The translations under genes and the position numbers were made by a program. Below are positions 4,808 through 5,463 of a DNA stretch of 42,177 nt, one piece after another. Numbering within the stretch: position 1 is the first letter of the stretch; each line of letters opens with the position of its first letter. The stretch is from assembly GCA_964358085.1 (NCBI GenBank), contig CAYHNU010000002.1, positions 1 through 42,177 on the forward strand, written 5' to 3'. The notes under the pieces were generated by a model. It had not been told where the DNA came from, ran no database searches, and saw only the letters and a list, made by a program, of their open reading frames with translations. The stretch is from an uncultured Gammaproteobacteria bacterium. Lineage in GTDB: Bacteria > Patescibacteriota > Microgenomatia > CAZETR01 > Amesbacteraceae.

Positions 4808-4854
4808 GGCCAGTCCTGCAGAGCAGGATCTGGCTTTGCCAGAGTGGCGAAGTG
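4808..4854 (+). pseudogene. 5' fragment of a tRNA-Cys-like gene (GGCCAG|30-nt insert|GTGGCGAAGTG)
   Basis: With 4814-4843 removed it reads GGCCAGGTGGCGAAGTG. The intact tRNA-Cys 5' end is GGCCTGATGGCGAAGTG (5136-5152). Acceptor GGCCAGG is the exact complement of CCTGGCC at 5333-5339. Confidence 0.55.
4814..4843 (+). repeat. 30-nt double-hairpin element, copy A (TCCTGCAGAGCAGGA-TCTGGCTTTGCCAGA)
   Basis: Two adjacent 6-bp stems with 3-nt loops. Homologous copies lie at 5211-5240 and 5293-5322. Confidence 0.8.
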
Positions 4855-4856
4855 AT

Positions 4857-5132
4857 ATGTACTATACTTATGTACTAAAGAGTCTAGTAAATGGGGATGT
4901 ATACATCGGATACTCAGAAAATTTAAGAACCCGTCTTGAATATCACAACTCGGGCAGGGTAAGATCGACTAAAGGCTATAAGCCGTGGATTTTGGTATAT
5001 TACGAGGCTTATTTAAACAAATTTGATGCGGCAGGACGAGAAAAACAATTAAAAACACATGCTGCCAAATCTTCCCTGGAAAAGCAGATTTCTCGGAGCC
5101 TGACCGAAGCTAATGGTAAAATCAACAGGTAG
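4857..5132 (+). CDS. small GIY-YIG nuclease-superfamily protein
   Basis: YYTYVLKS..GDVYIGYSENL..RL..HN, then a conserved Arg and E..LK. Start moved to ATG 4857, because the upstream 21 codons are only a translation of the hairpin repeats. Confidence 0.8.
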   Translation: MYYTYVLKSLVNGDVYIGYSENLRTRLEYHNSGRVRSTKGYKPWILVYYEAYLNKFDAAGREKQLKTHAAKSSLEKQISRSLTEANGKINR

Positions 5133-5135
5133 TCC

Positions 5136-5207
5136 GGCCTGATGGCGAAGTGGAAACGCTGCGGTCTGCAAAACCGCCATGCGGGGGTTCGATTCCCCCT
5201 CAGGCCT
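5136..5207 (+). tRNA. tRNA-Cys (anticodon GCA)
   Basis: Hand-folded cloverleaf: acceptor GGCCTGA/TCAGGCC, anticodon arm GCGGT-CTGCAAA-ACCGC, T arm GGGGG-TTCGATT-CCCCC. It has the A13/A22 mismatch and U73 discriminator typical of bacterial tRNA-Cys. CCA is not encoded. Confidence 0.9.
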
Positions 5208-5210
5208 CTG

Positions 5211-5240
5211 TCTCACAGAGCGAGATCTGGCTTTGCCAGA
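5211..5240 (+). repeat. 30-nt double-hairpin element, copy C (TCTCACAGAGCGAGA-TCTGGCTTTGCCAGA)
   Basis: Begins 3 nt after the tRNA-Cys 3' end. The first stem differs from copy A by paired (compensatory) changes. Confidence 0.75.
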
Positions 5241-5254
5241 CAAAACCCTTATTC

Positions 5255-5278
5255 GCGGGTGCGAATCCCGCCCGGGTC
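5255..5278 (+). pseudogene. orphan tRNA 3' fragment (T arm GCGGG-TGCGAAT-CCCGC plus acceptor strand CCGGGTC)
   Basis: T-arm-like hairpin and a 7-nt acceptor strand followed by TCT, as at the other two tRNA 3' ends. No proper 5' partner is present. Confidence 0.4.
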
Positions 5279-5286
5279 TCTAGGAT

Positions 5287-5339
5287 GGGGTTTCCTGCAA
5301 AGCAGGATCTAGCTTTGCTAGACGATTCCCCTCCTGGCC
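5287..5339 (+). pseudogene. 3' fragment of the broken tRNA-Cys-like gene, with the T-loop split by copy B of the 30-nt element
   Basis: GGGGTT|30 nt|CGATTCCCC-T-CCTGGCC. Removing 5293-5322 restores GGGGTTCGATTCCCC. The acceptor strand pairs with the 5' fragment at 4808. Confidence 0.55.
5293..5322 (+). repeat. 30-nt double-hairpin element, copy B (TCCTGCAAAGCAGGA-TCTAGCTTTGCTAGA)
   Basis: The second stem carries a compensatory G>A / C>T pair relative to copies A and C. Confidence 0.8.
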
Positions 5340-5375
5340 TCTAAAATCGACGCTTCGGACTTTCTTCGGTTTGGG

Positions 5376-5404: not shown

Positions 5405-5463
5405 GCAGGGCAGTTCTCCCCAGTATATGAGGGAGAATTTTTTTGGGCCAAAGGCCCACTAAT

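Follow-up and report, generated by a model that had tools for sequence, protein, structure and literature searches.

How three copies of a 30-nucleotide (nt) double hairpin (DH) came to lie in and beside tRNA sequence, around a small nuclease gene, is the question raised by a DNA stretch of 42,177 nt (assembly GCA_964358085.1, contig CAYHNU010000002.1, positions 1 to 42,177; the whole stretch is referred to here as the window). The record is titled uncultured Gammaproteobacteria bacterium, and GTDB places the genome in the family Amesbacteraceae of the class Microgenomatia (Patescibacteriota), within the Candidate Phyla Radiation (CPR). The DH proved to be a discrete 30-bp palindromic repeat family, which occurs CPR-wide, shows a target preference and inserts without target duplication. 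It is also statistically tied to one clade of GIY-YIG nucleases and to tRNA loci.

The rearranged tRNA-Cys locus of the window

The three copies, to which no strand was assigned, matched the original prediction exactly. Copy A (4814..4843) reads TCCTGC-AGA-GCAGGA / TCTGGC-TTT-GCCAGA, copy C (5211..5240) reads TCTCAC-AGA-GCGAGA / TCTGGC-TTT-GCCAGA, and copy B (5293..5322) reads TCCTGC-AAA-GCAGGA / TCTAGC-TTT-GCTAGA. When folded as single-stranded DNA, copies A (-10.1 kcal/mol, z -3.8) and B (-8.7 kcal/mol, z -3.5) each form two hairpins with 6-bp stems and 3-nt loops, and the fold of copy C is weaker because of one A.C mismatch in stem 1. All differences among the copies had been described as preserving the stems. 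This is true of stem 2 of copy B, which differs from that of A by one compensatory G-C to A-T change, and of the two compensatory pair swaps in stem 1 of copy C, but the mismatch in that same stem had gone unmentioned.

The DNA around the copies consists of one intact tRNA-Cys gene and the remains of two orphan tRNA-Cys alleles, which we named X and Y (all features are on the plus strand; a vertical bar marks the insertion point). Positions 1-6 of X (GGCCAG, 4808..4813) are located where the native tRNA-Cys starts in the same-genus genomes G001 and G002 and, once G4844 is added, pair perfectly with 5333-5339. Copy A follows, separating positions 6 and 7 of this tRNA-Cys-like 5' fragment (GGCCAG|GTGGCGAAGTG) just as had been claimed. 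Positions 7-17 of X (GTGGCGAAGTG, 4844..4854) come next, and 10 of 10 bases are identical to positions 8-17 of the intact tRNA-Cys. The stand-alone gene for a GIY-YIG nuclease of 91 amino acids (aa), with a catalytic domain only, occupies 4857..5132. Downstream of it lies the intact, cassette-borne tRNA-Cys(GCA) (5136..5208; recognised by ARAGORN, Rfam RF00005 63.1 bits), which is the sole tRNA-Cys of the assembly.

Copy C had been placed 3 nt past this intact gene, which is an incomplete description. Its left flank CTG (5208..5210) corresponds to anticodon-loop positions 32-34, and the copy sits at CTG|CAAAAC, junction 34/35 of the 3' half of Y. Positions 35-73 of Y (CAAAACCC...GGGTCT, 5241..5279) share 73% identity with the intact gene over its 3' part. 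The remainder of X lies beyond, with its variable region, 5' T-stem strand and T54-T55 (AGGATGGGGTT, 5282..5292) followed by copy B, which was indeed found inside the T-loop (GGGGTT|CGATTCCCC), and then by positions 56-73 (CGATT CCCC TCCTGGCC T, 5323..5340). Positions 44-73 of X thereby span 5282-5340 in the order AGGATGGGGTT, copy B, CGATTCCCCTCCTGGCCT. Deletion of copies A and B was said to restore canonical tRNA sequence. It does restore a perfect 7-bp acceptor stem and the T arm, but no complete tRNA, as X has no positions 18-43; Y has no positions 1-34. ARAGORN accepts the DH-free ends of X as a tRNA-Cys when the missing middle is supplied. Hence the DHs of this locus sit in non-functional tRNA-Cys debris, in X at 6/7 and 55/56 and in Y at 34/35, and none sits in a working tRNA.

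Comparison with relatives clarified the origin of this debris. In both G001 and G002, a single uninterrupted tRNA-Cys occupies the space between the same two flanking genes. The gene of G002 has 75 nt and is of the Y type, Y being 93% identical to it, while that of G001 has 73 nt, is of the X type and differs from X by a compensatory acceptor-stem change. The intact tRNA-Cys of the window is 93-96% identical to those of other genera and families and to that of G001 by only 85%. Due to the empty sites in relatives and the foreign type of the intact tRNA-Cys, we regard the locus as a palimpsest. These alignments suggest that a cassette of GIY-YIG gene and tRNA-Cys displaced the resident tRNA-Cys alleles, leaving X and Y as debris, and it probably entered in at least two rounds. 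In G008 (L079), a member of the same family, a related GIY-YIG gene, a tRNA-Cys and an orphan with a DH in its T-loop lie beside an orthologue of the neighbouring 278-aa gene. The orphan-borne DHs would persist as neutral passengers in such debris, and may in addition interrupt short repeats or targets whose presence would otherwise destabilise the cassette.

A TAAAAT box lies 12-13 nt upstream of orphan X and, judging from a by-eye alignment with G001 and G002, is retained from the native tRNA-Cys gene; a consensus promoter scan upstream of X found no strong promoter. Further along, at 5444-5458, there is a single 15-nt hairpin with the same module shape (TGGGCC-AAA-GGCCCA), after a T-run at the start of an open reading frame (ORF) for an M23 peptidase. 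This hairpin is kept in G002 and could represent either a terminator or a half-element on its own.

A dispersed palindromic repeat family

The clearest evidence for a discrete element comes from the transfer-messenger RNA (tmRNA) genes of G003, which carries a DH, and G002, which does not. Both belong to the same genus as the window; the tmRNA gene of G002 is missing precisely the 30 nt of the DH, and the target is not duplicated. The Rfam alignment places the extra 30 nt of G003 in a hairpin loop of the tmRNA. Downstream of the tmRNA 3' end, G003 (L025/L013) has a different GIY-YIG gene, and the tmRNA appears inverted relative to its smpB-like neighbour when G003 is compared with G002 (L026). 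The tmRNA gene of the window's own genome is cut by a contig end, and only its 3' 125 nt are assembled (C49:3808-3932).

The element is also widely dispersed. We scanned 401 genomes of the class with a pattern in which hairpin 2 was fixed and three pairs of hairpin 1 were free, together with a reversed-pattern control. The window type of DH was present in 24 of these genomes, with up to 20 copies per genome, and the control produced 0 matches. A sister type, characterised by a TCAGCC/GGCTGA hairpin, was found in 78 of the 401 genomes, including the window's own (contigs C19 and C61). Among species-representative public genomes, at least 120 stretches with a DH were recovered from many CPR lineages; those among the matches listed include Roizman-, Gottesman-, Woese-, Levy-, Moran-, Lipton-, Wildermuth-, Adler-, Azam-, Uhr- and Staskawicz-bacteria as well as Saccharibacteria. 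In all, hundreds of dispersed copies occur across CPR genomes. Several public records of metagenome-assembled genomes that carry these CPR elements are titled 'uncultured Gammaproteobacteria' or 'Pseudomonadales'. At least one of them, L152 (CAYIBX010000004.1), is the same contig as G053:C4, whose genome is placed in this CPR class, so that the record titles look mislabelled.

Apart from A, B and C, no further copy of the window type was found in the 693-kb, 66-contig assembly to which the window belongs. The original prediction had named a lack of further copies anywhere, along with unprocessed transcripts and non-functional tRNA halves, as a sign of mere local duplication; the lack is real for this genome, but related genomes do contain further copies. 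On average, 5.3 nt distinguish one window copy from another, and 5.9 nt distinguish the window copies from those of other genomes. Copy A has two exact counterparts (100% identity) in G082, which belongs to another family. The window copies are thus as unlike each other as they are unlike foreign copies, and they do not stem from a recent local duplication.

The copies share a strict architecture. Each consists of two abutting 15-nt hairpins (TCnnnC-nnn-GnnnGA) that are inverted relative to each other and meet at a central GATC. Hairpin 2 approximates the reverse complement of hairpin 1, the loops being RRA and TYY, and loop positions 9 and 22 are complementary in 59 of 60 copies. Since one hairpin is roughly the inverse of the other, the 30-mer is a palindrome of palindromes centred on GATC. 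The stems have been maintained through sequence change: in 30 of 39 distinct copies, Watson-Crick pairing extends to all three free stem pairs (p = 1e-46), at least eight different stems were seen, and pairing across 41 family members holds in 97.2% of cells. Pair changes on both sides were counted in 37 cells, as opposed to 9.6 +/- 2.7 in shuffled sets, and none of 500 shuffles reached 37. A sequencing adapter or assembly artefact was considered as a source of the repeat and rejected, given this compensatory variation and the occurrence of the DH in assemblies from many independent studies. In G031 the copies are nearly identical (mean of 0.97 differences), which implies recent amplification. 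At L018, L019 and L020 of this genome, DH copies are embedded in tandem heptamer repeats (aactcgt, ctgtttg and attcgct).

Insertion contexts were compared with control positions for 128 non-redundant copies. Copies lay within 300 nt of a tRNA gene in 20% of cases versus 4.7% of control positions, and within 100 nt of a short GIY-YIG gene in 8.6% (11/128) versus 1.0%. Meanwhile, 40% of the copies lay wholly inside ORFs of at least 150 aa, compared with 73% for random positions in the same loci. In a hand sample, five of eight copies were inside ORFs of 288-784 aa. The ORF-borne copies are in frame, and 25 of 39 distinct copies are free of stop codons in all six frames, compared with 15% of shuffled 30-mers. 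Solo copies occupy variable protein loops, intergenic DNA and hairpin loops of RNA genes, and they survive where they are tolerated.

The flanks follow the consensus A(A/T)TTG|CAA(A/T). Of 127 copies, 14 have exact TG|CA flanks, the background frequency being 0.28% per site, and such flanks persist in 5 of the 101 copies that are distant from tRNA genes. Duplications of 2-5 nt at the flanks were no more frequent than expected by chance, or rarer. Positions T33-G34-C35-A36 of every tRNA-Cys(GCA) spell TGCA, which explains both the position of copy C and the recurrence of the arrangement CTG|DH|CAAAAC in many lineages. The 34/35 and 55/56 junctions recur in G324, L213, L116, L140, L217 and L226. 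Other junctions in tRNA-derived DNA are 55/56 in the T-loop, 12/13 and 17/18 in the D-loop, 26/27 and 6/7. Collectively, the exact presence or absence of 30 nt in the tmRNA gene, the hundreds of dispersed copies, the flank preference and the lack of duplication bear out the earlier suggestion of a miniature structured mobile element.

A double hairpin in the RNase P RNA gene (C38, 2096-2125) resembled a DH, but Rfam aligns it to the native P13/P14 helices, and it was therefore discarded as an insertion. Clean 10-aa empty sites were sought in orthologues of the C61 ORF and of a glycosyltransferase of G053 and G180, and neither had an unambiguous 30-nt gap. Another small repeat, cccttcgacaagctcagggcaag with its variants, encodes ...DPSTSSGQ... 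and was observed in the window's own genome at C61:~1930-1960 and in C6 near 11850, and also in L057 at 1385-1410. It adds 6 aa to a conserved 552-aa ORF with respect to all five relatives, and cccttcgacaagctcagggcaag-like sequence also occurs beside GIY-YIG cassettes.

The GIY-YIG companion and competing explanations

The nuclease encoded between copies A and C matches PF01541 with 54.4 bits (cut-off 22.6), and its nearest solved structure is 1ZG2, the UPF0213 protein BH0048, a stand-alone domain. The NCBIfam model for group I intron endonucleases yielded 21.9 bits, below its cut-off of 56. We placed the start at ATG 4857 because relatives have homologous N-termini of the form MYYxYVLKS. No separate DNA-binding domain was found in the protein, as the catalytic domain alone covers its 91 aa.

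Its closest homologues, with 55-63% identity, are those of G153, G053, G192, G122, G320, G276 and G139. Six of these seven have a DH of the TCTGGC or TCTAGC type within ~30 nt, and the seventh, a pseudogene in G139, is accompanied by a decayed DH. A DH of the window type is present in seven of the eight genomes with a GIY-YIG protein at least 55% identical to that of the window, versus 17 of the 393 others (Fisher p = 8e-9). The recurrent layout is a DH, 7-31 nt, the GIY-YIG gene, a tRNA gene (Cys, Ile or Leu), 2-26 nt and a second DH. The DH - GIY-YIG - tRNA - DH cassette is a recurrent unit, and the DH is the constant companion of one clade of ~90-aa, catalytic-domain-only GIY-YIG proteins in tRNA genes. 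The original prediction of a module linked to the adjacent nuclease is hence upheld as an association.

More distant GIY-YIG subclades are accompanied by other palindromes, such as CCCCGCAGCTGCGGGG at tRNA-Trp. The window's own genome contains nine short GIY-YIG ORFs, eight of which adjoin tRNA genes and orphan tRNA pieces with different GC-rich palindromes. The adjoining tRNAs are Gln, Val, Ala, Asn (twice), Lys and Trp, and the ORFs other than that of the window include C5:1865-2182, C19:7151-7486, C22:9808-10056, C6:11948-12265, C6:11562-11957, C3:11853-12104 and C14:12680-12865, the C14 copy having an in-frame stop codon. In the orphan tRNA pieces beside them, stems are replaced or split by palindromes such as TCCGCCAGCTGGCGGA, TCCGGCTAGCCGGA and CCCCGCAGTTGCGGGG.

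Based on these findings, we consider it on balance probable that the DH is a CPR-wide palindromic insertion unit with a GIY-YIG companion, that a cassette of the two invaded the tRNA-Cys locus, and that DHs insert at the DNA level with the nuclease as candidate enzyme. According to this proposal, the cassette would have invaded the resident locus for tRNA-Cys, probably more than once, and its own tRNA-Cys is now the sole copy. DHs would insert into unpaired or loop-forming TG|CA-like DNA sites. The minimal nuclease, the best candidate for a partner enzyme, may make the break or recognise the palindrome. Equivalent insertions into live tRNA genes would be lethal, and would for that reason never be seen.

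Several observations weigh against this account. The genomes richest in DHs (G031 with 20 copies, G066 with 8 and G090 with 4) have neither a close homologue of the nuclease nor any DH-adjacent GIY-YIG gene, and therefore the nuclease cannot be shown to be the mover. The nuclease clade is missing from 17 of the 24 DH-positive genomes. The window's own genome has its three copies at one locus, which also fits passive import along with the cassette. Copy A, at 6/7 in CAG|GTG, is a poor fit to the flank consensus. A clean empty site was obtained only in the tmRNA case: in both ORF cases examined, the DH peptide lies in a variable loop and is not a clean 10-aa insertion. For example, in a GT4 glycosyltransferase (L014 of G053 and L232 of G180) the DH encodes SGQARSRSAR, and the orthologues have an equally long unrelated loop (HHDRRLPRNA and similar), with one orthologue loop being 9 aa shorter.

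An alternative mover would be a Y1 (HUH) transposase like the REP-associated tyrosine transposases (RAYTs), which mobilise repetitive extragenic palindromic (REP) sequences and their doublets (REPINs). The link to the GIY-YIG gene would then reflect hitch-hiking or a shared preference for tRNA neighbourhoods. The inverted doublet of a hairpin unit resembles a REPIN, insertion without duplication beside a short motif is typical of HUH single-strand transposition, and this reading accommodates the DH-rich genomes that have no cognate GIY-YIG gene. ORFs of ~220-270 aa matching Y1_Tnp (PF01797) occur in seven of the eight DH-bearing genomes tested, and five RAYT-like ORFs of 224-271 aa are present in the window's own 0.69-Mb genome (C4:14335, C22:7116, C3:24946, C16:5720 and C36:3791). 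However, none of the 128 DHs lies within 1 kb of a RAYT-like ORF, while 11 lie within 100 nt of a GIY-YIG gene, and in the eight genomes the RAYT genes never adjoin a DH. In addition, G153 has DHs and no Y1_Tnp match, and the GTAG or CGTC tag of REP sequences is missing from the DH. We rejected RAYT as the partner enzyme, as the genes are present in these genomes and never adjacent to the repeat, and consider this explanation unlikely.

A different possibility is that the DH is a non-mobile, cis-acting part of the cassette and that solo copies are relics. It could act as a stabiliser or insulator of the 5' leader, or as a plug that interrupts nuclease targets or short direct repeats within the orphans and so guards the cassette against deletion or re-cleavage. 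In line with this, many lineages have the DH at a distance of 7-31 nt before the start codon, it is always inside the orphan 5' piece although its position varies (6/7, 9/10, 12/13, 13/14, 17/18 and 34/35), and on inspection by eye a leader starting from the retained TAAAAT box would contain copy A. Against relics stands the exact 30-nt indel in the tmRNA loop, where no other cassette remains are found. The 40% of copies inside ORFs, the near-identical multi-copy sets of G031 and the occurrence of both orientations upstream of the gene also speak against it. An exclusively cis-acting element thus seems improbable to us, yet such a role may hold in addition to mobility.

The original prediction had also considered an intron-like insert, that is, an RNA-level intervening sequence removed from tRNA precursors by splicing or processing. 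The clean insertion points at loop positions are suggestive of it, and the stable hairpins would form in RNA too. Nonetheless, in silico deletion of the DH restored a complete tRNA in 0 of 185 cases, and the gaps of X and Y were described above. Mismatches within the hairpins are balanced on the reference strand (6 G.T vs 8 A.C), so that no strand is favoured, and both orientations occur, including upstream of GIY-YIG genes, as do copies inside ORFs. Taken together, these results indicate a DNA-level element and not an intron of live tRNA genes. Furthermore, 30 nt is far below the size of group I introns, a bulge-helix-bulge motif is missing, and the host is a bacterium. We therefore regard the intron-like interpretation as unsupported and highly improbable.

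Finally, the three copies could be taken as locally duplicated, or as similar by chance, and of no broader significance, which would suit an assembly with no further copies. This notion is already refuted by the compensatory changes between copies, their mutual distances, the hundreds of copies elsewhere and the empty reversed-pattern control.

Likeness to known mobile systems

A close functional parallel is the partnership of REP or REPIN elements with a RAYT gene (Bertels & Rainey 2011, PMC3116915; Nunvar 2010, PMC2817692). Like those elements, DHs are short, GC-rich palindromic repeats whose unit is an inverted doublet of hairpins; they are dispersed, form homogeneous within-genome sets in some genomes, and characteristically flank one small enzyme gene. 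REP palindromes have a conserved GTAG or CGTC tetranucleotide at one end (PMC3733652), whereas DH units start with TC, end with GA and are flanked by TTG|CAA. Unlike in REPINs, the flanked gene encodes a GIY-YIG nuclease instead of a Y1 HUH transposase, the doublet has no spacer and spans only 30 nt, 40% of copies lie in ORFs, and copy numbers are low, at most ~20 per genome. By analogy, the DH would work like a REPIN with a single-copy enzyme gene, yet it does not show the RAYT adjacency and the GTAG tag of that family.

The cassette itself recalls free-standing GIY-YIG homing endonuclease genes. Paquin et al. reportedly described in 1994 a mobile free-standing GIY-YIG ORF in Allomyces atp6, and the gene for SegB of phage T4 lies in a tRNA cluster. 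The latter is a free-standing GIY-YIG homing endonuclease gene (PMC2330249). As in such cassettes, the ORF of the window belongs to no intron and lies within or beside the gene that it presumably targets; a duplicated or foreign segment makes the invaded gene whole again, a displaced fragment stays behind, and close relatives differ in whether they carry the cassette. In contrast to Seg proteins and I-TevI, the protein of the window is a bare catalytic domain of 91 aa without their DNA-binding domains, and here a dedicated palindrome also spreads alone.

Three further kinds of small repeats invite comparison. Elhai et al. are said to have described, in 2008, the small dispersed repeats (SDRs) of Nostocaceae as 'very small mobile repeated elements'. 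SDRs are hairpin units of at most 30 nt that insert precisely without target duplication, like DHs; they are often nested in heptamer tandem repeats, as the DHs of G031 are, and the mover is proven in neither. This Nostocaceae work of Elhai et al. 2008 is cited in PMC3116915. DHs differ from SDRs in their CPR lineage, their sequence, their double-hairpin architecture and their statistical link to a nuclease gene and tRNA loci. We see in this likeness a functional one rather than membership by sequence.

The Rickettsia palindromic elements (RPEs), reportedly described by Ogata et al. in 2000, are likewise palindromic repeats that are tolerated in frame in protein genes and also occur in RNA genes. 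In contrast to DHs they measure 100-150 bp, are not known to have an associated nuclease gene and are known from one genus only. RPEs are mentioned in PMC10969869.

As for the DH as a miniature inverted-repeat transposable element, no parent insertion sequence was found, its flanking duplications are not above chance, and the tmRNA indel has none. Double-hairpin elements (DHEs) were, reportedly, described by Paquin, Laforest & Lang in 2000 from Allomyces and other mitochondrial DNAs. They too comprise two adjacent hairpins, look mobile, reside between genes and in the variable regions of RNA genes, and share their genome with mobile endonuclease ORFs. They are organellar, larger than DHs and unrelated to them in sequence. 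To our knowledge, no cognate pairing of a nuclease clade with a repeat type has been documented for DHEs. The term double-hairpin element occurs in PMC10085805.

A search of the full-text literature found no description of such elements or cassettes in CPR bacteria. More tentatively, and with considerable doubt, we put forward the possibility that stand-alone UPF0213-type GIY-YIG domains and clade-specific palindromes form an undescribed two-part mobile system. The minimal nuclease, lacking a DNA-binding domain, would derive its specificity from the cognate DH and from loop-forming or TG|CA-like DNA, and would move itself together with a replacement tRNA, while the 30-nt palindrome would travel as a non-autonomous passenger across CPR proteins and RNA genes.

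A functional pairing of nuclease and palindrome, if true, would be a GIY-YIG counterpart to the REPIN/RAYT partnership, and would provide the UPF0213/YhbQ-like mini-nucleases, which are widespread but uncharacterised, with a function. The presence of the DH also accounts for the many broken-up tRNA loci that confuse the annotation of CPR genomes. In genomes of only 0.6-1.3 Mb, the element adds stretches of 10 codons to protein genes and additional helices to tmRNA. In the genome of the window, a selfish cassette has made itself indispensable, as it carries the sole tRNA-Cys gene.

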